Of a DNA stretch of 39,130 bases, positions 3,250-21,157 are shown in pieces. The stretch's first letter is position 1. Every line of letters begins with the position of its first letter. This DNA comes from Promethearchaeota archaeon. Its GTDB lineage: Archaea; Asgardarchaeota; Lokiarchaeia; Sigyniarchaeales; SOKP01. The DNA is taken from NCBI GenBank assembly GCA_008080735.1, contig SHMW01000031.1:1293-40422 (forward strand). Reading direction: 5' to 3'. Under the pieces are notes generated by a model. It had not been told where the DNA came from. It ran no database searches and was given only the letters and a program-made list of their open reading frames with translations. The position numbers and the translations under genes are program-made.

Positions 3250-3631
3250 ATTTTTATTGGATACATATGCTTGGATCGAATATTTTCGTGGTAGTAGCAA
3301 GGGAGAAATAGTAAATGACTTAATAGATTCAGAAATTATTTACACATCAATTATTTCCATTGCTGAGTTGTCGGATAAATATTATCGTGAAAATTTATCA
3401 GAAGAGTGGCAAGATCGATATCGATTTATTGTTTCAGAATCTTACATAATACAATTATCCATGGAGATTGCACAGAGATCGGGTACCAGAAAATGGAAAT
3501 TACGTGAGGAGAATGAAGATATTGGACTTGCGGATGCGATGATAATTGAAACTGCCATTCAAAAGAAATTAACGCTTGTATCTGGAGACCCACATTTTGA
3601 AAACCTAGATAACCTCCTATTTTTAAAATAA
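3230..3631 (+). CDS. vapC: VapC PIN-domain ribonuclease toxin
   Basis: LLDTYAWIEY, SIAEL, GLADAMI, LVSGDPHF carry the conserved PIN acidic residues. Confidence 0.9.
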   Translation: MPSGNTKFLLDTYAWIEYFRGSSKGEIVNDLIDSEIIYTSIISIAELSDKYYRENLSEEWQDRYRFIVSESYIIQLSMEIAQRSGTRKWKLREENEDIGLADAMIIETAIQKKLTLVSGDPHFENLDNLLFLK

Positions 3632-3716
3632 ATTTTTGGAGCCAAAAAGAGTATTTATCTGAATATTATTTAACTGAGTATTAATTTATTAATTATATTT
3701 AAAAGGAGATTCTCAA

Positions 3717-4166
3717 ATGGAAGAAAAGAGCGGGGAAAATTTACCTAATAATCCCTTAGAAGCACAAGGTATGCTTATTAAGGCTTTTTATGAAAGATTC
3801 GGGAAAGAAGCATTGCCTATTATTAAAAGAATTTGTGGAAAGCAAGGGAGAGCGCTTGGCCTTAAAATAAAGAAAAAACTCCCAAGTAATAACCTTTCGA
3901 CCGTCGCAGAGGCATTTTCAAAGACTTATGACCCGAAAGATGTGAAAATCGTGAAAATATCTGATAAAGAGTTTCGGATTCAAGGAACAAGATGTCCTTT
4001 TGGGTTAGAAAATACCTCCAGAGAGCTCTGTGAGGCAGTAATGGAAATTGATCATGAGTATTTCCGTACAGCTGTTAATGAAAAAATTTCATTAAAAATT
4101 AAAAGAACTGTCGCTGGGGGAGATTCCAACTGCGATACTATTTATGAATTGGAAACGGAAGAATAA
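3717..4166 (+). CDS. ATC-hydrolase/V4R-like ligand-binding domain protein
   Basis: ERFG.EA, RCPF, LCEAVMEID, RTVAGGDSNCD three-Cys pattern. Confidence 0.6.
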   Translation: MEEKSGENLPNNPLEAQGMLIKAFYERFGKEALPIIKRICGKQGRALGLKIKKKLPSNNLSTVAEAFSKTYDPKDVKIVKISDKEFRIQGTRCPFGLENTSRELCEAVMEIDHEYFRTAVNEKISLKIKRTVAGGDSNCDTIYELETEE

Positions 4167-4292
4167 TACATACTAATAATACTATGCTTCTATGTAATCC
4201 ATCCTTCTTTACGATTAAGAATATTTAGTGTGTGAATTCGTTTTTTAGTCAAGCTAATTTTTGAGAAATAATTATAAACATAGTTTTGAAAA

Positions 4293-5399
4293 ATGTCCGA
4301 ATTTGATATAGTGGTTGTTGGTGCGGGACCAGGTGGATCGATCGCCGCGAAAGTGGCAGCTGAAGAAGGTTATACAACTTGTATAATCGAGAAAGAGAAC
4401 CTGAGGGATGAGGGCCGATATAAAGCTTGCGGTGGTGCGATGGCATGGGAATTAGTAGAAGAGATTGATTATCCAGAAGAAAAAGTCGCCAGGGTAATTG
4501 AGTCGCTTGAGCTCCATCATGTCGATGGGGAGACTTATTCTAAAGAGGGGAAAGGAGCGGTCGTGTGGAGATCGGTCTTTGATAAATTTCTTACAGATAT
4601 GGCCCTTAATGAAGGTGCGAAGTTAAAAGATAAAGAGGCCTTATTGGATATAGAACAGAATGGAACAAATTACAAAATTACCACGACGCAAGGAGTCTAT
4701 GATGCTAATTATGTAGTTGCTGCGGATGGAGTTACCTCACGGACCCTAAAGAGGTTAGGATGGCCTGATTTTCATAGCGATGATCTAATTCTAACGATCA
4801 CTAAAGAGATGAAATTAAATAGCGTAGAGATTGATGAACGATTAGGCAAAGATAAAGTGCATCTCTATTTCGGCATCGAAAATCTCATCCCTGTGGGGTA
4901 TGCATGGTTATTTCCTAAAGCCGATCATATTACCGTGGGATGGGGAAACCAGATAAATCTCATTAAAAACTCTCGGGAAGAATTCCAAAAATTTGTAAGC
5001 TTATCCACGGTAGAAAAGTCTTTGAGAGGATCCGAAGAGGCCGTGTTCAAGCCGCATCTAATTCCCGTTGGATTACGACCTCAGTTATATAAGGAAAAAG
5101 TGATCGCGGTTGGAGATGCTGGGGGGATTGTAGATCCCATTAGCGGTAAAGGCATTCCGTATGCGATGATGTCAGGGCAAATTGCGGTCGAAACAATTAA
5201 AAAGTGTGAGAATAAAGATCGTATCAAGCGTATAGGAGAATATTATAAAAAAACGCTTGATAGAAAATTTTTAAAAATTCTGGAATTGAAACGACAAGCA
5301 AGAGACCGAATTTTTAATGATGAAAAATCTCTAAAGAATTTTCTTTCACTCTGGGAAACCCATAGATCCTCAGAAATAGTTATGAAAGGTTTAATTTAA
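4293..5399 (+). CDS. Geranylgeranyl reductase family FAD-dependent oxidoreductase
   Basis: VVGAGPGGS, KACGGA, AADG, GYAWLFP, GDAGGIVDPISGKGI. Confidence 0.88.
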   Translation: MSEFDIVVVGAGPGGSIAAKVAAEEGYTTCIIEKENLRDEGRYKACGGAMAWELVEEIDYPEEKVARVIESLELHHVDGETYSKEGKGAVVWRSVFDKFLTDMALNEGAKLKDKEALLDIEQNGTNYKITTTQGVYDANYVVAADGVTSRTLKRLGWPDFHSDDLILTITKEMKLNSVEIDERLGKDKVHLYFGIENLIPVGYAWLFPKADHITVGWGNQINLIKNSREEFQKFVSLSTVEKSLRGSEEAVFKPHLIPVGLRPQLYKEKVIAVGDAGGIVDPISGKGIPYAMMSGQIAVETIKKCENKDRIKRIGEYYKKTLDRKFLKILELKRQARDRIFNDEKSLKNFLSLWETHRSSEIVMKGLI

Positions 5400-5417
5400 A
5401 AACTGGCTTCATTCGAT

Positions 5418-5485
5418 TAAGACACCCTTTAGGTGCGGTGGTCAAGGAAGCAAGAATCACGCTCCTTTAGGAGTTGGTAGTTCAA
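5418..5485 (+). mobile_element. IS200/IS605 right-end-like remnant (non-autonomous)
   Basis: GC-richer island with two hairpins (CACC-cttta-GGTG; GCTCCT-tt-AGGAGT), GAAGCAAGAA before the last hairpin and terminal GGTAGTTCAA; no tnpA/tnpB nearby. Confidence 0.6.
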
Positions 5486-5507
5486 TTCAATAGAAATCCC
5501 AGATTAT

Positions 5508-5987
5508 CTATAGAATCAATGCGGTTCTTTTCGGGGCTTTTTCAGCATAAAAATATCTGCCGGAACCCATCACATCAACGTGGCGAAAAGTTATTCTATG
5601 AAACATTAATTTTCCGGATTTGAGACCATATTTTTGTTTCACTTTTCTATAAGTTTCTTCATCTAAAGGCTTTAATAGTTCGAGAATCCATTCTCCCAAT
5701 TCTGATACAATGAGTTCTTCGTCTGATGGATAGTATTGTTCTTTATTCGCCCCAAGTCCCGGATGACCTTCTCTATACAATCCAGAGTTGTTCAATGCTT
5801 TCTTTTGATAAGAAATAAACTTTAGAACTATTCTCCCTATATTTTCTAAGCTTTTTGGTCCGATTTTGTCAAGAATTTCGAAAACGCGATTTTCCCCTCG
5901 AATATAATCCTCTAAGGTATCGGGGGAACGTTTTGGCTCATACCCTGAAAAATCATCTATAGAATCTTGCTTTTTCTCGATATCCAT
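5508..5987 (-). CDS. Hypothetical protein
   Basis: 159-aa ORF, ATG start, protein-like composition; no family recognised. Confidence 0.7.
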   Translation of the reverse strand: MDIEKKQDSIDDFSGYEPKRSPDTLEDYIRGENRVFEILDKIGPKSLENIGRIVLKFISYQKKALNNSGLYREGHPGLGANKEQYYPSDEELIVSELGEWILELLKPLDEETYRKVKQKYGLKSGKLMFHRITFRHVDVMGSGRYFYAEKAPKRTALIL

Positions 5988-6138
5988 TTACAACTTTCCT
6001 TGAAGAATATCTTTTCTAATTATGTGGCAATAAATACCTTAGGTATTTAAGTTTTTTTCTGCTTTTGAATGAAACTTTATTTACTGTAAAAAGTAATTTA
6101 TTATTAGATTCATAAAACATTTCGAAAGGAAGATAAGA

Positions 6139-7218
6139 ATGGTAAATATTTATCATGAAAAGGATGGAAATATTTCTGAAATTAAGGAAAAAACTGTCGC
6201 TATCATAGGGTATGGGAATCAAGGAAGAGCGCAAGCATTAAACCTCCGAGATTCTGGAATAAATGTAATTGTGGGTAATCGCGAAGATGAATACAGACAA
6301 TTTGCTAAGGATGATGGGTTTTCTACTTATTCGATAGCGGATGCGGTTAACAAGGCTGATATTATTTTTATTTTAATACCAGATGAGATCTTGGATGAGG
6401 TATTTGAAGAGAGTATTCGACCATATTTAAGTGAGGGTAATGCGATCGTATTTGCAAGTGGGTATAATGTTGGATTTGAATTAATTGATTTACCGGATAA
6501 TATCGATGTCCTCTTACTAGCTCCCAGGATGATAGGTGTAGGAGTCAGAGAAAAATTTTTGGATGGCGAGGGTTTTTTCAGTTTTATTGCCATTGAACAA
6601 GATGCGACAGGTCACGCAAAAAATGTTTTACTGGCGTTGGCTAAAGGAATCGGAACCTTGAGAAAAGGCGCTGTAGAATTAACCTTTAAACAAGAAGCAG
6701 AATTAGATTTGTTCAATGAGCAAGGCTTCGGTCCTGCGTTTGGGAGAGTATTGTTGACTGCGATTTATACTCTCTTAGATGCTGGATATCCTCCAGAAGC
6801 GGTTTTGATTGAAATGTATATGTCTGGGGAAATGTCATATACATATCAAGCCATGGCAAAAGTAGGTTTGGTCAAACAAGTTAATTTTCATTCCCAAACC
6901 AGTCAATATGGCTCGATGAGTCGCGGAATTCGCTTTCGAAAATTGCCATTACGACCAAAAATGGAAGAGATATTGGAGGAGATTCAGAATGGAGAGTTTA
7001 CCAAAGAATGGGAGAAAACTCTAACAAAGCTAAAATTTAAGATCATTAAATTCTTTGCGACCAAACAAAAGATAAATCGCATCGAGAATGAAGTTCGGGA
7101 TAATTTGGGATTAAAAACTTATGATATATATGAACAAGAACCCCCAACAAACAGAGATATGGAGGAGCTAAAAGAGGTTTCAGAGGAGCTTAAAGAATTT
7201 GAAAAGTACTATCAGTAA
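6139..7218 (+). CDS. ilvC: Ketol-acid reductoisomerase
   Basis: IIGYGNQGRAQALNLRDSG, LIPDE, LAPRMIG, EAELDLFNEQ, SQTSQYG. Confidence 0.92.
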   Translation: MVNIYHEKDGNISEIKEKTVAIIGYGNQGRAQALNLRDSGINVIVGNREDEYRQFAKDDGFSTYSIADAVNKADIIFILIPDEILDEVFEESIRPYLSEGNAIVFASGYNVGFELIDLPDNIDVLLLAPRMIGVGVREKFLDGEGFFSFIAIEQDATGHAKNVLLALAKGIGTLRKGAVELTFKQEAELDLFNEQGFGPAFGRVLLTAIYTLLDAGYPPEAVLIEMYMSGEMSYTYQAMAKVGLVKQVNFHSQTSQYGSMSRGIRFRKLPLRPKMEEILEEIQNGEFTKEWEKTLTKLKFKIIKFFATKQKINRIENEVRDNLGLKTYDIYEQEPPTNRDMEELKEVSEELKEFEKYYQ

Positions 7219-8652: not shown

Positions 8653-11600
8653 ATGAGTTATTCTTATTCACGTACAAAATTAATTGAAAAAATAAAATTC
8701 GGATTACTCAGTCCCGATGAGATCCGAAAAATGTCAGCAGCTAGAATTATCACGGCTGATACCTATGATGAGGATGGATTACCAATTCCTTCTGGATTAA
8801 TGGATCAAAGATTAGGCACGATTGAACCTGGTCAGAGATGCCAAACATGTGGAAACCTTGTTAGCAACTGTATGGGCCATTTCGGACATATTGAGCTTGC
8901 AAGGCCAGTTATCCATGTGGGCTACGCAAAGAAGGTGCTTAAGTGCTTGCGTTCCATCTGCCCTGAATGTTCCCGCTTAATGCTTTCTGACGAAGAGAGG
9001 GAAAAGCATCGTGAGGAGCAAATAAAACATCGTAAAATTTATCATGAGGGCGATGAGGACATCACCAAAATCGTATTCAAGAGTGCGCGAAAAAATAAAG
9101 TGTGTCCGTTCTGCGGTGCAAAAAAGAAAAAAATTATTCTTGAAAAACCTACTACTTTTTATGAAGAGGAAGAGGCGAAAGGTTCTCGACGATTAACTCC
9201 AATCGAAATTCGAGAGCGGTTAAAAAAAATGACTGATGCTGATCTCCGCATCTTGGGGATATCTCCTAAAAATGCGAGATTAGAATGGGTCATTTTTACT
9301 GTTTTACCGATTCCTCCCGTATGCGCACGGCCGTCCATTACGCTTGATAGCGGCATTCGATCGGAAGACGATCTTACCCATAAATTAGTAGATGTTATCA
9401 GAATTAATCAACGACTGCGTGAAAATATTGATGCTGGAGCACCTCATCTCATCGTTGAGGATCTATGGGAATTATTACAATATCATATCACTACTTATTT
9501 TGATAATCAAGTGTCCGGAATTCCACCGGCTCGGCATCGGTCAGGACGGGCACTTCGAACATTGACACAAAGATTAAAAGGGAAAGAAGGACGTTTCCGT
9601 AGCAATTTGAGTGGAAAACGTGTTGATTTTTCGGCGAGAAGTGTCATCTCTCCAAATCCACATATAAGCATTAATGAAGTGGGAGTTCCGAAGGATATCG
9701 CAAAAATCTTGACTATCCCTACAAACGTAAATGATTGGAATATTGAACAGATGAAACAATTGGTATTAAACGGACCAAATAGACATCCAGGTGCGAACTA
9801 TATCATTCGAAACGATAGACGTAGAATAGACCTACGATATGTTAAAAACAGGAAAATCATTGCTGACATGTTGGCACCAGGTTTCACAGTTGAGCGACAT
9901 CTTAATGATGGTGACTTGGTTCTTTTTAATCGTCAACCATCCCTCCATCGGATGTCTATTATGGCTCATGAAGTAAAAATTATGGACGGAAGAACCTTTA
10001 GGCTAAACCTTACTGTATGTTTAGAGGGTAATACTCCTATTATTACAGACGCAGGAAAAATTAAAATCAAACATTTAGTAAATAATTTTGAACAATTTAA
10101 ACTTCTATCTTCGACTTGGAAAAAGGAATTACCAAAAGATCCCACAAATATAAAGGTTATTCAGCAAGGGATTAAAGAAGCTCAGATAATTAATGCAGAA
10201 TTACATGAAGAGCCGATTAAAGGAAAGAGAATTATTACAGAGATGGGTCGTGTTTTAGAAACCACTTTGGATCATCCATTCTATACAGAGAAAGGAAAGA
10301 TTGCTGCAGGATTACTTTCTAAGGGAGATAGAGTCGCAGTTTATCCAATTGAAGTACCTGAAATAGAAGCAAATAAAGGAGAGATTATATTAACTCCAGA
10401 TGATATACTAAATCACGCGCCTCCAAACAGCTACACTTCATATTTGCTGAAAGAATTGAAAAACATAAAACTGCTTAACATTCCACAGACATCTAAAAAG
10501 CAAATTATACTAGCCTCATTAGTGGGACATCTAATGTCTGACGGGACATTATGGTGGGATGACGAAGGAGTTCATTTAACATTCCGGACTGGAGAAATTG
10601 AAGATATAGAACAAATTAAAGCTGCATTAGAATCAATCGGAATTAAGACTCCTAAGCCAAAATTAAAAAAATCTAGAGGAGACGAAATAACCACAGTTTC
10701 TGGAGATAAATTATATCCAAAAGGTAAAGGGTATATCATAGATATCAGAAAAAAACCAATCGCTATAGCCTTCCATGCTTTAGGAGTTCCTGTTGGTGAT
10801 AAGGTAACTCAAGAATTTCCAGTACCAAAATGGATTTTAAAGGGTTCAAAGATGGTTAAAAGAGCATTTCTTAGAGGTTATTTTGGGGGAGAATTATCCT
10901 CACCTCGATTACATACAAAATCTTCCAAAGTCATTAATCAACCCGTCTTTAAGATGTCAAAAATTGATGGATTATCTGCTCACGGATTTTTCGAAGATAT
11001 AAACACTCTCTTAAAAGAATTTGGAACAGAAGTCTCCTCCTATACAACTCAAGAAGGTAAAATTAGAAAAAAAGATGGTAAACGATCTACAACTTATGTA
11101 GCCAATATCATATCTAACGAGAAACAATTAATATCCTTTTATAAAAAGATTGGTTGTGAATTTTCAAACAATAAGGAAGTTTATTGTCGACTAATGGCCG
11201 AATATCTAACATTAAAACATTATACTCGAATGGACCAACAAGAAGTAAAAATGGAAGCAATAGATCTGAGAAAACAAGGACTAGCATTGGAACAGATTGT
11301 AAATAAATATAATGTTTCTCCGATCACGATTTCAAGGTGGGAAAGAGGAGTATATGATAAAGCTGGTTTACCTATAGATTTTCCTTCTTTTAATGAATGG
11401 CTCGATGAAAATACAAAAGGATTAAACGATGGATTGGTGTGGGATAAGATAAAATCAATTGAAAATATTACCCTCAATATAGCCTATGATGTTTCAATGG
11501 ACGGGAATTATGATAACTTCATTGCTAATCAATTTTTAACTGGAAATTGCCCTCCATACAATGCTGATTTTGACGGAGACGAGATGAATCTTCATGTCCC

Positions 11601-13128
11601 TCAGAGTGAGGAAGCCCGTACCGAAGCTGAATTATTACTAAAAGTTCAAGAACATATCTTATCCCCTCGTTTTGGTGGACCTATATTAGGAGGCATTCAA
11701 GATTTTATTTCCAGTGTGTTCCAATTTACTAGCAAAGAATCAATCTATAATCCAAAAGATACGTTAAAACTTCTTTATATGGGGAATGTATTTGATCAAA
11801 AACCTAATTTTGATATGAATGAGGTAGAACCAATACAAATCGATCCCGAACCAATGTATTCAGGAAAACAAATCTTTAGCACCCTACTTCCTGAAGATTT
11901 AAATATTCGAGTCCGTTCAAAATTTTGTAAGAAATGCTTTACAAAACCAGGACAAGAATGCAAAGAGGAAGATTGCGAATATGATGCCTATGTCCGAATA
12001 GTCAACGGAGAACTCCAGACAGGTACTATTGACGAAAATTCGTTTGGTGCGATGCAATCTAATAGTATATTACAAAGAATTATAAAAGATCACGGTAACG
12101 CGCGTGGAAGAGAATTTTTAGACAGCGCAACTCAGATGCTGCTATATGTCATCAGGCAAAATGGAATGACAATGGGGCTTGATGAGGTGTATGTAAAAGG
12201 GGAGGCTTTCGAAGAGATCCAAAAAGTCTTAAATGAATCAACGGAGGAATCTAAACGACTTATTAAAGCTTTTCGAGAAAATGACACAGATGTATTACAA
12301 AGAGCGCCTGGGCGTTCACTAAAAGAAACATTAGAATTACGTATCCGTCAAGTGCTTGCGGAAGCACGTAAGAAAGCAGAAGAGATCGCTGCCAATTATA
12401 TTGGGGATGAGGCCCATTCGGTTATCATGACCAAATCTGGTGCGCGTGGAAACATCTTAAACTTGGGTCAGATGTCTGCAGTTGTAGGGCAACAAGCAAT
12501 AAGAGGAGAAAGGATTAATCGAGGATATAGCTCTCGTACCTTACCACATTTTAAAGTTGATGACCTAACTCCTAGGGCACGAGGATTTGTTGAGCAATCA
12601 TATCGAAATGGATTGGATCCATCTGGATTCTTTTTCCATGCGATGGGAGGGCGAGAAGGTCTCGTAGATACTGCTGTACGTACATCTACATCAGGATATA
12701 TGCAACGTCGATTGGTTAATGCACTGCAAGATATGGTAATTGAAAATGACGGAACAGTACGCAATGCAGATAAAAATATTATTCAATTTGATTTCGGAGA
12801 TGATAATATTAATCCGCAGCACACGGATCATGGAGATGCGGTCAATCTTGACGTGCTTCTCTTGAAAGCCCAAACCTTGGATACAGAAGAAATTCAAGAA
12901 TCGTTAAAACAAGAAAAACAACGGAAGAAGGAAAAACCAAAATCCGTACCTTCTAAAGAAACACCAAAAATAGAATCGACTAAAGAAAAACAAAAGGAAG
13001 TAAAGGAAGCTCCTACTGAGGAGGAAATGCGCGCTGAATTCGAAAAAGAAACGGATAAAAATGCGGTTTGGCAAGGAAAGATCACCAAACAATATAAAGA
13101 ATGGCGTGAGGAAAAATATGGAATTTAA
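8653..13128 (+). CDS. rpoA1: RNA polymerase subunit A' (Rpo1N) precursor containing an intein
   Basis: CxGHFGHIELARP, GKRVDFSARSVI, NRQPSLHRMS, catalytic YNADFDGDEMN, GGREGLVDTAVRTS. Confidence 0.98.
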   Translation: MSYSYSRTKLIEKIKFGLLSPDEIRKMSAARIITADTYDEDGLPIPSGLMDQRLGTIEPGQRCQTCGNLVSNCMGHFGHIELARPVIHVGYAKKVLKCLRSICPECSRLMLSDEEREKHREEQIKHRKIYHEGDEDITKIVFKSARKNKVCPFCGAKKKKIILEKPTTFYEEEEAKGSRRLTPIEIRERLKKMTDADLRILGISPKNARLEWVIFTVLPIPPVCARPSITLDSGIRSEDDLTHKLVDVIRINQRLRENIDAGAPHLIVEDLWELLQYHITTYFDNQVSGIPPARHRSGRALRTLTQRLKGKEGRFRSNLSGKRVDFSARSVISPNPHISINEVGVPKDIAKILTIPTNVNDWNIEQMKQLVLNGPNRHPGANYIIRNDRRRIDLRYVKNRKIIADMLAPGFTVERHLNDGDLVLFNRQPSLHRMSIMAHEVKIMDGRTFRLNLTVCLEGNTPIITDAGKIKIKHLVNNFEQFKLLSSTWKKELPKDPTNIKVIQQGIKEAQIINAELHEEPIKGKRIITEMGRVLETTLDHPFYTEKGKIAAGLLSKGDRVAVYPIEVPEIEANKGEIILTPDDILNHAPPNSYTSYLLKELKNIKLLNIPQTSKKQIILASLVGHLMSDGTLWWDDEGVHLTFRTGEIEDIEQIKAALESIGIKTPKPKLKKSRGDEITTVSGDKLYPKGKGYIIDIRKKPIAIAFHALGVPVGDKVTQEFPVPKWILKGSKMVKRAFLRGYFGGELSSPRLHTKSSKVINQPVFKMSKIDGLSAHGFFEDINTLLKEFGTEVSSYTTQEGKIRKKDGKRSTTYVANIISNEKQLISFYKKIGCEFSNNKEVYCRLMAEYLTLKHYTRMDQQEVKMEAIDLRKQGLALEQIVNKYNVSPITISRWERGVYDKAGLPIDFPSFNEWLDENTKGLNDGLVWDKIKSIENITLNIAYDVSMDGNYDNFIANQFLTGNCPPYNADFDGDEMNLHVPQSEEARTEAELLLKVQEHILSPRFGGPILGGIQDFISSVFQFTSKESIYNPKDTLKLLYMGNVFDQKPNFDMNEVEPIQIDPEPMYSGKQIFSTLLPEDLNIRVRSKFCKKCFTKPGQECKEEDCEYDAYVRIVNGELQTGTIDENSFGAMQSNSILQRIIKDHGNARGREFLDSATQMLLYVIRQNGMTMGLDEVYVKGEAFEEIQKVLNESTEESKRLIKAFRENDTDVLQRAPGRSLKETLELRIRQVLAEARKKAEEIAANYIGDEAHSVIMTKSGARGNILNLGQMSAVVGQQAIRGERINRGYSSRTLPHFKVDDLTPRARGFVEQSYRNGLDPSGFFFHAMGGREGLVDTAVRTSTSGYMQRRLVNALQDMVIENDGTVRNADKNIIQFDFGDDNINPQHTDHGDAVNLDVLLLKAQTLDTEEIQESLKQEKQRKKEKPKSVPSKETPKIESTKEKQKEVKEAPTEEEMRAEFEKETDKNAVWQGKITKQYKEWREEKYGI
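10018..11547 (+). mobile_element. Intein (510 aa) with LAGLIDADG homing endonuclease in Rpo1N
   Basis: Junctions RLNLTV|CLEGNT...NFIANQFLTGN|CPPYNADFDGD; block B TLDHPF; LVGHLMSDG and FLRGYFGGE; HTH-like VSPITISRWE. Confidence 0.96.
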
Positions 13129-15564: not shown

Positions 15565-16773
15565 TTATAATGCTAGACTTCCACTTGTAACTAATTCATG
15601 ATGTATTTTAAAAGTGAGAAAAAAAAACTCTCCTTTTTGATGTTTAGGAAAGCTTTCTAAATTATAATGGATTTCACTAAATCTTAATCTATTCCCATTT
15701 CGTAAAATAACAACTGAAACCACTTTAGAAGATGCTCTTCTAGTTTCATGATATAAGCGTCTCACATCCTTCCACGGAATATATGTGAATTCTTTTAATT
15801 TACGATAACAAAATCCCTTTGAATTGATGATAATAATATATCTGTAAAAAATAAACATAAAAGAAGGAAGCGTGAAGAAAAGGATGGAAAGAATAATATA
15901 CCAAATGATAATAAATCCAACATTTTTCATGCCCAAGCTCAGAAAGATGAGGAAGATCATCAAGGCACCTAAAAACCAAAAATTTAACATTAATATCGTA
16001 AGGCTGCGATGAGGTTTACCAGAAAAGATTAAAGATTCTCCTTTATAATATGAATCCTCTAAATCTTGAAAAAAATTATATGATTTACGATTGAAATCTC
16101 CTCTCTTGTAGTCTCTATAAACTTCTGCTAAGTCTTTTGGCATTTGTGGATGTTTCCATTTTTTTTGTGTTTCTTTCCTGAACGCCTTATAGTATGAATT
16201 AAAGCATTCTATTACTATGAATTTTAGTTTATCATCTTGAGATCGATCAAATTCGCCAAATTCTTTCAATTTAAAATTAAACGGGTCTATCTCAAAAAAG
16301 TTGCCATCATTAAAATTAATTTTAACGATATTACTGCGAAGTATACCTCCAAATCTTAAGTAATAAACTGAAGGGACTTCTGCTAATTTTAAATCTTCCC
16401 AAGTATATTCTTTTGGGGAATCCCCCCGATCTTTCAGAATAATCCCTTCAGCTCCATAAATTAGGAAAGCTTCTCGTCTTTCCCACATGGATAAAATAAA
16501 AAAGAGTAAACTAAATATTCCAAAGGTGATGATGGGGAGAAAAAATGCGATTAAATCCGACGCTCCTAATAAGAGTGCGATCAATATTCCCAGAAAAAGG
16601 AAAATCCCCGAGAGAATAAGGTAAATTGAACTCAGAGTAGTACTAAATGGCATAACGATGATCTTTTTATTTGTAATCGCATCATTTATATCATTTTTAT
16701 CTTTTATGCTATGAAAATTATAGTCTTGTTCTTTATAGTTATCATATGTTTCCAAATATCTTTCAGCAAACAT
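15565..16773 (-). CDS. Membrane protein with two repeated TM-hairpin + PH-like units
   Basis: IYGAEGIILK...YTWEDL and IINSKGFCYRK...IPWKDV each follow a TM pair; likely start ATG 16773 (track start 16869). Confidence 0.7.
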   Translation of the reverse strand: MFAERYLETYDNYKEQDYNFHSIKDKNDINDAITNKKIIVMPFSTTLSSIYLILSGIFLFLGILIALLLGASDLIAFFLPIITFGIFSLLFFILSMWERREAFLIYGAEGIILKDRGDSPKEYTWEDLKLAEVPSVYYLRFGGILRSNIVKINFNDGNFFEIDPFNFKLKEFGEFDRSQDDKLKFIVIECFNSYYKAFRKETQKKWKHPQMPKDLAEVYRDYKRGDFNRKSYNFFQDLEDSYYKGESLIFSGKPHRSLTILMLNFWFLGALMIFLIFLSLGMKNVGFIIIWYIILSILFFTLPSFMFIFYRYIIIINSKGFCYRKLKEFTYIPWKDVRRLYHETRRASSKVVSVVILRNGNRLRFSEIHYNLESFPKHQKGEFFFLTFKIHHELVTSGSLAL

Positions 16774-16996
16774 AAATTTTATGGAATATTTTATGGTGGA
16801 AAATATTTGATCGTAAAATAAAATTAGAAGTAATGCTTTATTTAAAAAAATTAAGTCTATTTGATTCACCTACTCTTACGATGCTATAACTAAGGTGGAT
16901 TGGATTAAACCTAAAATTTTAAGTTAGAAGAATAATTACATCTATTTGTTATAATTATCTATCTAAAATTATCATAGTATTTTTAATCGATGTAAA

Positions 16997-17425
16997 ATGC
17001 CGAAAGGATTATATGCAGCACGGAAACTGAAAGAGAATAGAAAGAAGTTCAGATGGAGTAAGACCAAATATAAGCGAAAAAAGCTTAAATTAAAGCAAAA
17101 AGTAGATCCATTGGAGGGTGCTCCGCAAGCAAGTGGAATTGTGCTCCAAAAGGTAGGACGTGAGAGCAAGCAACCTAACTCAGCTATTCGAAAATGTGTA
17201 CGTGTTCAACTTAGAAAAAATGGAAAAAGCATTACAGCTTTCTTGCCAGGAGATGGTGCGCTTAATTTCATTGACGAGCATGATAGGGTGTTGGTTGAAG
17301 GAATAGGGGGTGCTAAGGGGCGTGCTGTTGGCGATCTACCGGGCGTAAGATGGAAAGTAGTAAAGGTGAATGGTGTTTCATTAGACGCGCTTATTAAAGG
17401 AATTAAAGAAAAACCATTGAGGTGA
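16997..17425 (+). CDS. rps12: 30S ribosomal protein S12 (uS12)
   Basis: [35 protein letters not shown]. Confidence 0.98.
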
Positions 17426-18045
17426 GAAAAATAACCGAACGAGCTCATATTAAACTATTTAATCAATGGTCCTTTGAAGATGTGGAGGTACGAGATTGGA
17501 CCTTAGAGCGGTATATTAATCTTAAACCCATAATTATTCCGCACAGCTGTGGACGCCACAATAAGAAAACATTCTGGAAGACGAAAAAAGTAAATATTAT
17601 TGAGCGATTTATAAACCGTCTATTAGCCCCAGGATTTATGGACTCTAAAATTAAAGGACATAAGAGTTCCTATCAGTCTGGAAAGAAAAACCGAATACTT
17701 AAAGCGATGAAAGATGCGTTTAGGCTTATCAACCTAAAAACAGAAAAAAATCCCATCCAAATACTTATTGATGCGATTTGTAATACCGCTCCACGAGAGG
17801 AAACAACTAAAATCGCTATGGGAGGGATTTCATACGCGAGTGCGGTTGACATAGCCCCACAGCGACGTGTAGATTTAGCTATAAAATATCTTGTGCAAGC
17901 AATTGGAGCCCGCACCCACACGAACATAAAGAGTTTTGGAGAAAATATTGCGCAAGAATTAATGTTAGCAGCGCAAAATAGTCAAGATTCCCGTGCGGTA
18001 AAGAAGAAAGACGAAGTTGAGCGTATTGCAGTATCTGCTCGTTAA
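17422..18045 (+). CDS. rps7: 30S ribosomal protein S7 (uS7)
   Basis: [31 protein letters not shown]; GTGA overlap with rps12. Confidence 0.97.
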
Positions 18046-18279
18046 ATTTGTAGTTTGTATTTTTATCTCATTTTAATTATTAATTTTAGTATTGTTGTTA
18101 GATACCATTAGGTATCAGTCACGCAATATATAATTAGATTCAGATCGTCCTATATCACCGAGATATCATCAAAATATCGGGAGCTTAATGAACATACGAA
18201 ATTTATTCCTTAATTTTTAAATAAGTAGGAAACATATTATTCTATAAGCTATTATTAAAAATAGGGTTAATAAATAAGA

Positions 18280-20190
18280 ATGGGAACGGATTCCGACAAA
18301 AACATCTCTTTAATACTAGAAAAACAATTAAAGACGATTGGACAGAAAATAAGGTTAGATCTTTTGAAATCTTTACGCCTTTCCAAGATCCCTCTTTCAT
18401 TTTCTGATCTTCAAAAATCACTTCTGGGCTTCAATAATACCTCTGTAAATCTCTCGTTCCATTTAAAAACTCTAAAAGAGGCGAAATTAATACGTTGTAC
18501 GGATGAAGGTTATTGTATTACAGAGGTTGGAAAAGAAATATTTAAAAAAATTATTGACATTGAACATATTCTTAATAAGACAAACAAAAGTTTGGTTATT
18601 AGGACTTCAAAATACTCAACAGAGCCGTTCGATATAAAAAATGTAAAGGAATATCTAATCCGAGAAGCCGAAATGAACGCGTTCGTCGCCGAGGAAATCA
18701 CAAAACTTGCGGAGAAGAAATTATCAGAGACGAATATAGATTATTTAACCGCCCCATTAATGCGAGAATATATAAATGTGATTTTGTTAGAAGAGGGCTT
18801 AGAGGAGTATCGTCATAAATTGACAAGGCTAGGAATCCCTCCTTTCGATGCTGAGCAATTATTTTTAAATAAACAAATGGAACCAGAGGAATTCATTAAA
18901 AAAGTAGGTTCAGAGGCATCAGAGCAATTTTTATTATTAAACTTATTACCGAAAGAGTTGGCGGATCTCTATTTATCTAATAAGATTATACTATTGAATT
19001 TAGACATGTGGGCACTGAGACCATTAAGTCTTTTTGTTAACACAGAGCGAATCTTAGGTTTTTATGGAGTTGATATAGAGGATCAAAAACTCGCACTCCA
19101 CTTTAGCAATTATCTTCAGAAAATAATGCGTTTTTTTTCCAACAACATTTTACTCTATAACTTTGATCTCATTTCTGACCACTTTAATGATGAGGAGGAA
19201 ATATTCCAGTTTATTGATATTTTTCTATTCCTTATGGCAAATTTTAATAATTCAAACAATTGCAAATTGACACTTTCCTTTAGGAATATGAATAAAAACC
19301 CTAATAATAACTCAATTTTAGATTACTTATTGAGGAATTACCTGGATAGCTATTGTGAAGAATCAAATTCACAAAGTCTACCTCAGTTGCTTTTAAATTA
19401 TAATCCACACTTGCTAAAAGTTCTCGGCACAGAAAGATTATCGAAAGTGTGTTCTTCTTACAATCCAATTTTTTGTAAGGATTCGAACCATCTCATTAAT
19501 CATGACATAGTTAATTTTAATGGGGATATTAAATCACCCGGAAAAATTGTATTAGATAAAATCTTAATAAATTTATATTCAATTGCTCGAAATTCAAACC
19601 GAAATGATACCCAATTCTTTAATATACTAACCCAAAGATTGAACTCTGTATTTTCATTTTTCAATCAAAAACGTATCTATATGGAAAAGAAAATAGGAAA
19701 TTCGCCAAAATCGATCAATCACCTTTTTAACTTACTAGAGTGTGACCAAGATACTTGGATTCAAAGATCAATTAAATCGATCAGTTTTTACGGCTTAAAT
19801 GAAGCGGTTAAATATCATTGTGGAATCGGGTTAGAGAGATTAGATACAAGCACAAGATTTGCAATTAAGGCATTAAAATTGATGGAAAATCTAATTGACG
19901 AAAAAAATGATTTAGATAATGAAAATTTTTATTTGTCTCAACCCAATTTCACTCCTTCAAAATTAACTGAACTGATGGAATTCGAAAGAGAGAAAAAGAT
20001 ATCTGGCTTGATAGGAAACGATACCCAACTCTCTTTGGAACAAAAAATTGATCTTCACAATATAATTAGAGAGCATTTAAAGGGAGGTTCTCTTTTTATA
20101 CTTAAAAAAGATTCACCAGATTTTCCTGAGATATGGAAAAAATTAGAATTGCTCTCCTCATCAAAAATTCCCTCCTTCAAGTTTATATAG
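18280..20190 (+). CDS. ArsR-like wHTH + ATP-cone + degenerate NrdD-like fusion protein
   Basis: IRLDLL...FSDLQ...LSFHLKTL (wHTH); VIRTS...EPFD...LTAPLMREYIN...HKLTRLG (archaeal NrdD ATP cone); GLNEAVKYHCG; no C-terminal Zn ribbon or RxxGY motif. Confidence 0.8.
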   Translation: MGTDSDKNISLILEKQLKTIGQKIRLDLLKSLRLSKIPLSFSDLQKSLLGFNNTSVNLSFHLKTLKEAKLIRCTDEGYCITEVGKEIFKKIIDIEHILNKTNKSLVIRTSKYSTEPFDIKNVKEYLIREAEMNAFVAEEITKLAEKKLSETNIDYLTAPLMREYINVILLEEGLEEYRHKLTRLGIPPFDAEQLFLNKQMEPEEFIKKVGSEASEQFLLLNLLPKELADLYLSNKIILLNLDMWALRPLSLFVNTERILGFYGVDIEDQKLALHFSNYLQKIMRFFSNNILLYNFDLISDHFNDEEEIFQFIDIFLFLMANFNNSNNCKLTLSFRNMNKNPNNNSILDYLLRNYLDSYCEESNSQSLPQLLLNYNPHLLKVLGTERLSKVCSSYNPIFCKDSNHLINHDIVNFNGDIKSPGKIVLDKILINLYSIARNSNRNDTQFFNILTQRLNSVFSFFNQKRIYMEKKIGNSPKSINHLFNLLECDQDTWIQRSIKSISFYGLNEAVKYHCGIGLERLDTSTRFAIKALKLMENLIDEKNDLDNENFYLSQPNFTPSKLTELMEFEREKKISGLIGNDTQLSLEQKIDLHNIIREHLKGGSLFILKKDSPDFPEIWKKLELLSSSKIPSFKFI

Positions 20191-20221: not shown

Positions 20222-21157
20222 TCAATCCTCTAAAAGTTCTGCAAGGATCGCTTTACGCATATGCAACCCATAACCCGTTTGCTTAAAATATATTGATTTC
20301 TCAGAATTGTCAATCGAAGGAGTTATTTCATTTATTCTGGGTAATGGATGAAGGAGTTTGAAATTATCCTTAGTTTGTTTTAAATCTTTTCGACTAAACA
20401 CATAAAAATTTTTAACACGCTCGTATTCTTCCAAATCTGCAAACCGTTCCTTTTGGATTCTGGTCATATATAACACATCCAAAATATCAAGCACTTTCCT
20501 ATAATTGGTTAACTCTTTGAATTTTACTTTTCTCTGTTGATATAGATATTCTTTATACCTCCCACGCATTTTTAATTCCTCAGGGCTAATAAAGTAAATA
20601 TTAACATCAAAATTGGACAACAGCATAGCTAATGAATGAACAGTTCTTCCATATTTTAAATCACCCATTACCCCGATATTAATTCCGTCCAATTTCCCCA
20701 TTTCCTCATTAATTGTTAGTAGATCTAATAAAGCTTGTGTCGGATGCTCTTTGCTTCCAGAACCCGCGTTGATAATTGGTATATTGGCAAACCTAGCAGC
20801 CATTTTGGCTGAGCCCTCCATAGGATGTCGAATGACTATACAGTCACAATAATTCTCGACTGTTCTTATGGTATCTGCGAGACTTTCTCCTTTTTTGATT
20901 GAGGATACATCACCTGACTGGAAACCGATTACATTTCCTCCTAACCTATGCATAGCGGACTCAAAACTTAATCTTGTTCGAGTGGATGGTTCAAAGAATA
21001 ATGTGGCTAAAATTTTTCCTGAAAGTATATTGGAATTTTTAACCGATAACATCTCATGCCCTTTTTGTAATATATATTCAATATCTTCCCGATAAAAATC
21101 CCGAGCGCTGATAATACCTTCCCTAAATTTATCTTTGAACATATCTCTTTTATTCAT
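20222..21157 (-). CDS. pyrB: Aspartate carbamoyltransferase catalytic subunit
   Basis: FFEPSTRTRLSFE, HPTQALLD, GDLKYGRTVHSL, RIQKER, HPLPR. Confidence 0.98.
   Translation of the reverse strand: MNKRDMFKDKFREGIISARDFYREDIEYILQKGHEMLSVKNSNILSGKILATLFFEPSTRTRLSFESAMHRLGGNVIGFQSGDVSSIKKGESLADTIRTVENYCDCIVIRHPMEGSAKMAARFANIPIINAGSGSKEHPTQALLDLLTINEEMGKLDGINIGVMGDLKYGRTVHSLAMLLSNFDVNIYFISPEELKMRGRYKEYLYQQRKVKFKELTNYRKVLDILDVLYMTRIQKERFADLEEYERVKNFYVFSRKDLKQTKDNFKLLHPLPRINEITPSIDNSEKSIYFKQTGYGLHMRKAILAELLED

Follow-up and report, generated by a model that had tools for sequence, protein, structure and literature searches.

Transcription of the ribonucleotide reductase (RNR) genes of bacteria is well understood through the repressor NrdR, in which a zinc-ribbon DNA-binding domain is followed by an ATP-cone. 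NrdD, the class III RNR, has an ATP-cone too, and NrdD dimers have solved structures. Proteins of the ArsR/SmtB family are stand-alone dimers of about 100 residues, mostly sensors of metals or thiol stress that work through a3 or a5 sites. NrdR has been reported as rare in archaea (PMC9110341). Here we describe a gene in a 39,130-nucleotide stretch of DNA from a Promethearchaeota archaeon of the class Lokiarchaeia (the window, in what follows, is this whole stretch), whose product carries an ArsR-type winged helix, an ATP-cone and an NrdD-like barrel. From a computational analysis of its fold, catalytic loss, selection, distribution, gene context and conserved promoter elements, we conclude that the protein is probably a non-catalytic descendant of NrdD that works as a nucleotide-sensing, DNA-binding regulator.

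The likeness to NrdR lies in the order of the parts, a small DNA-binding domain and then an ATP-cone of matching fold, and in the Nitrososphaeria homologues, which adjoin RNR genes and have candidate operators at their own and at the RNR promoters. The differences are that the window protein has an ArsR-type winged helix in place of the zinc ribbon, a dead RNR barrel of 450 residues after the cone and no sequence match to the NrdR family, and that the Lokiarchaeal gene does not lie beside RNR genes. With NrdD it shares the ATP-cone, the ten-stranded barrel and a predicted NrdD-like dimer interface; unlike NrdD, it adds a winged helix and is without the glycyl-radical loop, the zinc ribbon, the thiyl and RPxC cysteines and HxHD. 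ArsR/SmtB proteins (CzrA, SmtB, CadC, HlyU and NolR) are matched by its first 100 residues, which fold into the complete winged helix from a1 to a5, but here the sensor would be the fused ATP-cone.

A further group of inactive NrdD relatives (pseudo-NrdDs), from Jord-, Atabey-, Baldr- and Thorarchaeia, Bathyarchaeia and Nitrososphaeria, has the same three parts, the same loss of cysteines and a pyrB neighbourhood. These proteins differ in being 690-800 residues long and in keeping a CxxC...CxxC zinc ribbon, some with a degenerate R..G.Y tail or a GDIHI strand. Many of them are encoded directly upstream of an RNR gene, whereas the window's branch is not.

Domain architecture

The gene and the parts of its product are as follows.

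18280-20190, forward strand: gene for the winged helix, ATP-cone and pseudo-NrdD protein, an intact open reading frame (ORF) for 636 residues with an ATG start
18307-18579, forward strand: winged helix-turn-helix (wHTH) of ArsR/SmtB type, residues 10-100, matched by PF24038 and by fold
18589-18825, forward strand: ATP-cone, residues 104-182, with a sub-threshold PF03477 match and a fold match
18826-19044, forward strand: TRLGxPP linker with the first barrel helices and strand, residues 183-255, a predicted dimer interface with degenerate HxHD and RPxC
19045-20187, forward strand: rest of the NrdD-like alpha/beta barrel, residues 256-636, its finger loop (about residues 397-421) cysteine-less apart from an offset Cys398

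Two curated profiles score above their Pfam cut-offs: NRDD (PF13597; 50.7 bits against 26.2, residues 425-554 on profile positions 279-412) and DUF7347 (PF24038; 34.5 bits against 27.6, residues 17-91). The NCBIfam equivalog model for NrdD, TIGR02487, gives 42.1 bits against a cut-off of 326.35. With PF13597 above its cut-off and TIGR02487 far below, the scores indicate a homologue of NrdD and not an NrdD equivalog.

The winged-helix topology, a1-a2-a3-a4-b-b-a5, is seen in two predicted models. One is a full AlphaFold2 model built from 32 family members, with a mean predicted local distance difference test score (pLDDT) of 76.6 and a predicted template modelling score (pTM) of 0.68; the other covers residues 1-262 only (pLDDT 81). 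Model residues 5-101 superpose on CzrA (6cda) over 90 of 95 residues, with a VIA-align Z of 12.7 and a root-mean-square deviation (rmsd) of 2.1 Å, and the next-best structural matches are SmtB, HlyU, CadC and the NolR-DNA complex. The window protein itself falls below the ArsR sequence models, with NF033788 at 22.6 bits against 55 and HTH_5 (PF01022) not listed by the Pfam scan. Among 25 diverse relatives, DUF7347 is found in all 25 and HTH_5 in 18 (E <= 0.01), and HTH_20 is also found in most.

The ATP-cone profile PF03477 matches residues 106-177 with an E-value of 0.009 and 17-19 bits, under the cut-off of 25.8, and matches 24 of the 25 diverse superfamily members at E <= 0.01. Over 82 residues the cone superposes on Streptomyces coelicolor NrdR (7p37_A) with a VIA-align Z of 11.3 and an rmsd of 2.1 Å, and its beta-hairpin is resolved in the model of residues 1-262. 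Eight cone residues are invariant across the superfamily, R108, E115, F117, L126, E129, T157, R162 and E163. A Foldseek search with the three-domain N-terminal model gave no match at E <= 0.001, but the domains were clearly matched when its candidates were aligned with VIA-align.

The rest of the chain resembles class III RNRs. These account for all of the best Foldseek matches in the PDB through rank 36 (best E 8.6e-17). The barrel superposes on Prevotella copri NrdD (8p27_A) over 417 residues (Z 29.1, rmsd 3.2 Å) and on T4 NrdD (1h78) over 413 residues (Z 28.7, rmsd 2.9 Å), the latter pairing model residues 206-636 with chain residues 33-537. In the model the ten-stranded NrdD barrel is complete, and the chain stops where the zinc-ribbon and glycyl-radical domain would begin; the first zinc ligand of T4 NrdD is Cys543. 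The original prediction, made by reading the sequence, had described an ArsR-like wHTH at about residues 10-97, an ATP-cone from nucleotide 18595, a diverged NrdD-like body with the motifs GLNEAVKYHCG, SQPNF and KGGS, and an end before the zinc ribbon and RxxGY. The domain matches and the end of the chain agree with this description, and the three motifs stand in the translation at residues 505-515, 553-557 and 601-604.

Working RNR genes in the same genome

A separate, intact NrdD is encoded on contig C1 (positions 3384-7034 of locus L004, reverse strand). It is 1217 residues long, including an intein of 507 residues inserted between GIIQGEF and SGGQGYD, and has the motifs IHIHM...RPFC, SQCCRKF, QPAES, YYTNSSH, GGGVISH, CPQC...CPKC and SRITGYY. 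Two more genes in the genome encode RNR large subunits of the class I/II type, on contigs C5 and C121, and a tRNA-like sequence lies directly upstream of the one on C5.

The NrdR model TIGR00244 matches nothing in the whole genome, which is 93% complete, the window gene included. No nrdG-like gene adjoins the genome's own nrdD, and a genome-wide search with TIGR02495 gave only radical-SAM matches below the cut-off. On contig C2 (L066:957-1397, reverse strand) there is a stand-alone ATP-cone protein of 146 residues, without a DNA-binding or barrel domain, that shares a KTSK..E.F hairpin and a TRLGLPFYD linker with the window protein and with NrdD. This could be a third nucleotide-sensing player.

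Loss of the catalytic residues

Which of the residues that NrdD needs are still present? For T. maritima NrdD the roles of Cys125 (Cys79 in T4), SCCR (MGCR in T4) and HYHD in class III RNR have been described, and we apply those residue roles here (PMC4493059). Profile searches of PDB sequences, with the family alignment and with the N-terminus of the genome's own NrdD, gave weak matches only (E 0.006 and 5e-4), and because of this the mapping to solved NrdDs went via the genome's own NrdD. BLASTP aligns residues 117-259 of the window protein with the ATP-cone and first helices of that NrdD (29% identity, E 2e-16), and a second aligned segment spans the finger loop.

At the HxHD triphosphate position, IHIHM of NrdD is replaced by IILLN, and at the RPxC position RPFC is replaced by RPLS. 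In the finger loop SQCCRKF is aligned with FCKDSNH, where Cys398, the only finger-loop cysteine of the window protein, is offset and is not kept in the family (consensus IFYxxxxSxLLNS). QPAE has become QPN or QPH in the window protein and its family, and nothing lies beyond the GGS strand. Neither CxxC...CxxC nor RxxGY occurs in the window protein or in the aligned representatives of the core family; two RxxG[FY] strings in representatives fall outside the radical-loop position. The window protein has lost all of the catalytic residues of class III RNR.

This loss is shared by its relatives. In a MAFFT alignment of 122 sequences, including the genome's own NrdD, every wHTH-bearing relative is without the RPxC and finger-loop cysteines, and RITGY, TPAE and YYTNS are confined to sequences without a wHTH. 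Close orthologues have therefore not retained the catalytic set that this copy is missing.

It is conceivable that the protein is still an enzyme, acting on nucleotides by a chemistry that uses neither a glycyl radical nor cysteines. A complete barrel and the conservation of GLNEA, SQPH and GGS in the core family would fit, but every residue known to be required for class III catalysis or triphosphate binding has been replaced (PMC4493059), and the conserved body motifs, except for those that define the fold, are not found superfamily-wide. Moreover, the middle of the barrel evolves fast, with a ratio of non-synonymous to synonymous substitution rates (dN/dS) of 0.29. We consider an enzymatic role very improbable.

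Another candidate, the sensing of dNTPs at the specificity site of NrdD, was dropped, the helix segment that is expected to hold the effector-reading glutamine being variable in the family.

A predicted dimer

Two copies of residues 183-636 are predicted to pair, with an ipSAE interface score of 0.69 against 0.00 for the best control, a result that may only reflect likeness to the solved NrdD dimers. Of 30 proteins whose solved structures are pairs of one chain, 20 reach the mark applied to ipSAE, as does 1 of 23 proteins solved as a single chain. The partner pLDDT is at least 77, and at least 90% of the contacts are common to the runs. These contacts involve residues 183-222, 242-247, 270-285 and 313-324, that is, the invariant TRLGxPP linker and the helices of the NrdD dimer. 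Five residues in the segment 183-255 are invariant across the superfamily (R183, L184, G185, P187 and D229).

Such an interface also raises the question of whether the protein is a pseudo-subunit, one that pairs with NrdD or another RNR and modulates or sequesters it, with the winged helix in a secondary role. The predicted pairing, the presence of a working NrdD in the same genome and the finding that the NrdD-type interface region is the most conserved part of the protein (dN/dS 0.066) all suit this idea. However, the RNR that adjoins the gene in Nitrososphaeria is of the class I/II type, which has a different partner surface, and yet the protein is kept there. The winged helix, moreover, is present in every member and is under purifying selection. 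This explanation is improbable in our view, though less so than an enzymatic role.

Selection, distribution and phylogeny

By the Nei-Gojobori method, over 45 orthologue pairs, dN/dS is 0.20 overall, 0.16 in the wHTH, 0.086 in the ATP-cone, 0.066 in residues 183-255 and 0.32 in the tail. Taken with the mid-barrel value, this profile indicates that the sensor and the segment after it are the most constrained parts of the protein, and the former active-site region the least. The gene is under purifying selection, a test of which the original prediction had called for.

The core family comprises more than 1400 homologues of 630-670 residues with the same architecture and 40-53% identity. The gene is matched in 113 of 121 genomes of the class, including all 40 of the high-quality ones, and is mostly single copy. 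Four orthologues of genus g2 (G001, G041, G056 and G087) have one in-frame TAA inside the profile match.

These figures leave next to no room for the idea that the gene is a pseudogene, a truncated nrdD in decay, or an artefact of assembly. The missing C-terminal domain of NrdD is what would suggest one, but the reading frame is intact at 630-670 residues in more than 1400 proteins, selection is purifying, the gene is found in 40 of 40 genomes and its promoter is conserved. We consider a decaying copy refuted.

A profile search of 1.84 billion cluster representatives found 1056 clusters, and nearly all of the top 150 have the wHTH, the ATP-cone and the body. Beside the core of 630-670 residues there are longer forms of 690-890 residues, many of which keep CxxC...CxxC and a degenerate R..G.Y tail; none of these longer forms keeps the catalytic cysteines. 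By source name, the clade comes from Asgard archaea (Jord-, Atabey-, Baldr-, Thor- and Odinarchaeia), Bathyarchaeota and Nitrososphaerales/Thaumarchaeota. In Nitrososphaeria/Thaumarchaeota there are about 5000 proteins at E < 1e-10, from at least 541 species genomes. A sample of the Asgard phylum has full-length matches in 68 of 201 genomes, mostly Lokiarchaeia together with five other families, and many other Asgard families in this sample have no match at E <= 1e-30.

In a FastTree phylogeny rooted on three true NrdDs, all of the wHTH-bearing proteins form one clade with a local support of 100, the zinc-ribbon forms being basal and the Lokiarchaeal core nested deep inside; this is a quick tree with long branches and uneven composition, and serves as a working picture. 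It suggests a single event of fusion and inactivation, with the C-terminal domain lost later. On these alignments, the window protein is placed as a C-terminally shortened Lokiarchaeal branch of a multi-phylum clade of wHTH pseudo-NrdDs.

Three clusters (P0248, P0261 and P0266) hold NrdD-like proteins of about 690 residues that have an ATP-cone and are without a wHTH, a zinc ribbon and RxxGY. They branch beside the true NrdDs, outside the wHTH clade, and may be a second, independent lineage of dead NrdDs.

Members of the clade are variously labelled 'anaerobic ribonucleoside-triphosphate reductase', 'ArsR family transcriptional regulator' or hypothetical, and their N-terminal domain is a DUF (domain of unknown function) in Pfam.

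Gene context across archaea

The conserved neighbours of the gene in the window are as follows.

16997-18045, forward strand: genes for ribosomal proteins S12 and S7, upstream
20222-21157, reverse strand: pyrB, the catalytic chain of aspartate carbamoyltransferase (Pfam OTCace_N and OTCace)

A spacer of 234 nucleotides separates the gene from that of S7 on the same strand. The gene also lies tail to tail with pyrB, as had been pointed out in the original prediction, at a distance of 31 nucleotides, and this arrangement recurs across phyla. In Lokiarchaeia the order rpoA1, rpoA2, L7Ae/L30e, NusA, S12, S7, the gene and then a convergent pyrB is found in two further loci (L006 and L008), and in a third (L005) with three extra genes inserted. 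The order is kept between proteins that are only about 42% identical, and the block also includes the genes for L44e, S27e, TFS, PCNA and primase. A tblastn search with the window's pyrB finds a match in 33 of 34 Lokiarchaeal loci, which reach at most about 1.5 kb past the gene.

Two neighbours in the window deserve a remark of their own. The ORF for rpoA1, the RNA polymerase subunit A' (8653-13128, forward strand, 1491 residues), carries an intein between Rpb1 domains 2 and 3 (Pfam Intein_splicing, residues 470-963). Between NusA and S12 sits a gene for a multi-pass membrane protein of 434 residues with a weak DUF6585 match (15565-16869, reverse strand), which splits a run of genes that is unbroken in L006 and L008.

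The sister branches have a different neighbourhood. Among 80 species loci of Nitrososphaeria, 70 have enough downstream sequence to be evaluated, and in all 70 of these related genomes an RNR large-subunit gene lies directly downstream on the same strand. The gap is 109-604 nucleotides, with one of 1305, and the regulators are down to 43% identical. The RNR is of the class I/II type (Ribonuc_red_lgN/lgC, some with TSCPD). In two Thaumarchaeota (L010:6545-7000 and L011:6757-7000) the regulator gene is immediately preceded by a tRNA-like sequence.

A convergent pyrB, usually with pyrI, is found in five further lineages. In Nitrososphaerales the regulator is followed by the class I/II-type RNR and then by pyrB, reading towards it, and pyrI. 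In a Bathyarchaeota locus (L076) it is followed by a gene with an NRDD domain and then by pyrB and pyrI. Locus L015, whose protein groups with Bathyarchaeota in the tree, has the regulator, a true NrdD, a thioredoxin-like gene and then the convergent pyrB. In Atabeyarchaeia and Baldrarchaeia the regulator is followed by pyrB and pyrI with no RNR gene between. In two of the contexts examined neither an RNR gene nor pyrB was seen.

Adjacency to pyrB is a conserved feature and not a coincidence. The simplest reading is an ancestral block of regulator, RNR and pyrBI that arose by tandem duplication of nrdD, from which Lokiarchaeia later lost the RNR gene. Taken as a whole, the clade has a strong link to RNR and pyrimidine genes, whereas that of its Lokiarchaeal branch is indirect.

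Conserved promoter elements

Upstream of the window gene there are two conserved elements.

18151-18171, forward strand: conserved box, TATATCACCGAGATATCATCA, about 126 nucleotides before the start codon
18205-18225, forward strand: element like a B recognition element and TATA box (BRE/TATA), ATTCCTTAATTTTTAAATAAG, about 42 nucleotides downstream of the box

The box has the family consensus TATCACC[CT]ACATA[TA]TATC and is present in all 34 of the aligned Lokiarchaeal upstream regions. In the same 34 regions an aligned block, ATTCCTAAATTTTTATATA, stands at the position of the BRE/TATA-like element, and judged by the archaeal TATA consensus this block is a putative promoter. A perfect inverted repeat, GATACC-ATTA-GGTATC (18101-18116), lies 55 nucleotides past the S7 stop, upstream of the box; the aligned orthologous upstream regions do not share it.

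Five near-complete genomes of genus g2 contain the exact box nowhere but at the promoter of the orthologous gene, and their extra copies with one mismatch are as frequent as in the control. The uniqueness and position of the box fit autoregulation. We scanned the window's genome with the patterns ATATC-N5-GATAT and TATCAC-N3-[CG]ATA[TA] and a position weight matrix, and found 19 sites of at least 12 bits. The extra sites that are intergenic adjoin genes for an acyl-CoA dehydrogenase, a FeMo-cofactor-like protein, an S9 peptidase and unknown proteins. Two of these sites, C1:130592 near the acyl-CoA dehydrogenase and C15:42775 near the small FeMo-cofactor-like protein, equal or beat the gene's own box (28.8 and 26.4 bits).

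The best cis evidence for a shared regulon is an enrichment of one word in Nitrososphaeria, and hence comes from a sister branch and not from the window's. The density of GTCAA/TTGAC is 9.7 per kb in the stretch from regulator to RNR and 8.9 per kb in the 130 nucleotides before the regulator. In shuffled sequence it is 1.9 per kb, and in other parts of these loci outside ORFs 2.2 per kb, a 4-5-fold enrichment at both promoters. Only TATA-like words precede it in a ranking of 512 five-letter words, where it is third to fourth. Its positions are fixed: one copy immediately follows the regulator's TATA box, another precedes that of the RNR gene by about 20 nucleotides, and the RNR promoter has a further distal copy. 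The boxes in question are GTTAAATACxxTTGAC at the regulator promoter, and TTGTCAA with a distal GTCAAAAA at the RNR promoter.

Does the Lokiarchaeal branch still control RNR? It may instead be a DNA binder that no longer does so and has another regulon or another DNA-linked role, for instance by linking nucleotide status to the surrounding information-processing genes, or in chromatin or replication. The fixed place of the gene between S12-S7 and pyrB, in a block of ribosomal and replication genes, would agree with such a shift. So would the RNR promoters of the genome, at which no box was found, the strong box-like sites before unrelated genes, and the greater distance of the core family from NrdD compared with other branches, both zinc ribbon and HxHD having been lost. 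That said, the exact box is confined to the gene's own promoter in the five other genomes, where the extra sites have no exact counterpart, RNR and pyrBI genes accompany the sister branches, and the ATP-cone is the second most constrained segment of the protein. We regard a separate regulon as unlikely, while ranking it above the other alternatives considered here.

Discussion

In this work, we have described a protein whose ATP-cone is most likely a sensor of adenine nucleotides and whose ArsR-type winged helix most likely binds DNA. By analogy, it probably plays in archaea the part that the repressor NrdR plays in bacteria. The original prediction had proposed just this, an RNR paralogue repurposed as a nucleotide-responsive transcription factor and a functional analogue of NrdR, and it remains the best explanation, with the Nitrososphaeria adjacency to RNR as independent support.

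We propose the following mechanism. Two chains would pair by the NrdD-type helical interface in residues 183-325, which would bring two winged helices together on DNA. The ATP-cone between winged helix and barrel would bind ATP or dATP, and this binding would alter the oligomeric state or reposition the DNA-binding domains, in the manner of NrdR and of RNRs with an ATP-cone. Transcription of genes for the supply of DNA precursors, and probably of the regulator's own gene too, would then follow the dATP/ATP balance, whether by repression or by activation.

A broader proposal is that the clade provides the main regulator of RNR and dNTP supply in Asgard and TACK archaea, as an independent analogue of NrdR. 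On this account nrdD was duplicated before itself, a winged helix was added and catalysis was killed, and the Lokiarchaeal branch was later uncoupled from RNR and fixed beside the block of ribosomal and RNA polymerase genes. We hold this version to be possible, at somewhat short of an even chance.

Several observations weigh against a regulator of RNR that senses nucleotides. Neither in this genome nor in its class do RNR genes adjoin the gene, and the promoters of nrdD, of the RNR gene on C5 and of the stand-alone ATP-cone gene lack the TATCACC box, the promoter of the RNR gene on C121 being cut by the contig end. The box was also considered as an operator of pyrB and rejected, as it is found there in the window only (12 bits at -110) and in 0 of 28 other orthologous pyrB promoters. 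The ATP-cone of the window copy scores under the Pfam cut-off, and the K-R pair of its hairpin has Thr as its second residue, where the working NrdD has Ser. The helix segment in which, from its position, the effector-reading glutamine (Gln161 of T. maritima NrdD) would be expected is variable and has no conserved glutamine in the family, and a second sensing site at the dimer interface is doubtful for this reason. Because related genomes are not independent, the 70 of 70 and the word enrichment amount to fewer separate observations than the figures suggest; the adjacency to RNR spans two RNR classes and regulators down to 43% identity. Finally, no experiment or paper on any member of the clade was found in the literature searched, most subscription journals being outside its coverage. 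With these points taken into account, a nucleotide-sensing regulator derived from NrdD is still the explanation that we prefer.

These results matter for annotation as well as for regulation. The label of reductase wrongly suggests that dNTPs are made anaerobically, in aerobic ammonia oxidisers among others, and distorts metabolic reconstructions. For Asgard archaea, Bathyarchaeia and Nitrososphaeria we came across no account of a regulator specific to RNR, and the clade is a testable candidate. It would clearly exemplify the reuse of an entire radical enzyme as a DNA-binding protein that senses a ligand, with the evolutionary intermediates still extant, first with the zinc ribbon kept and then with it lost. 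If true, the Lokiarchaeal branch may couple the dATP/ATP ratio to wider growth genes in the closest prokaryotic relatives of eukaryotes.

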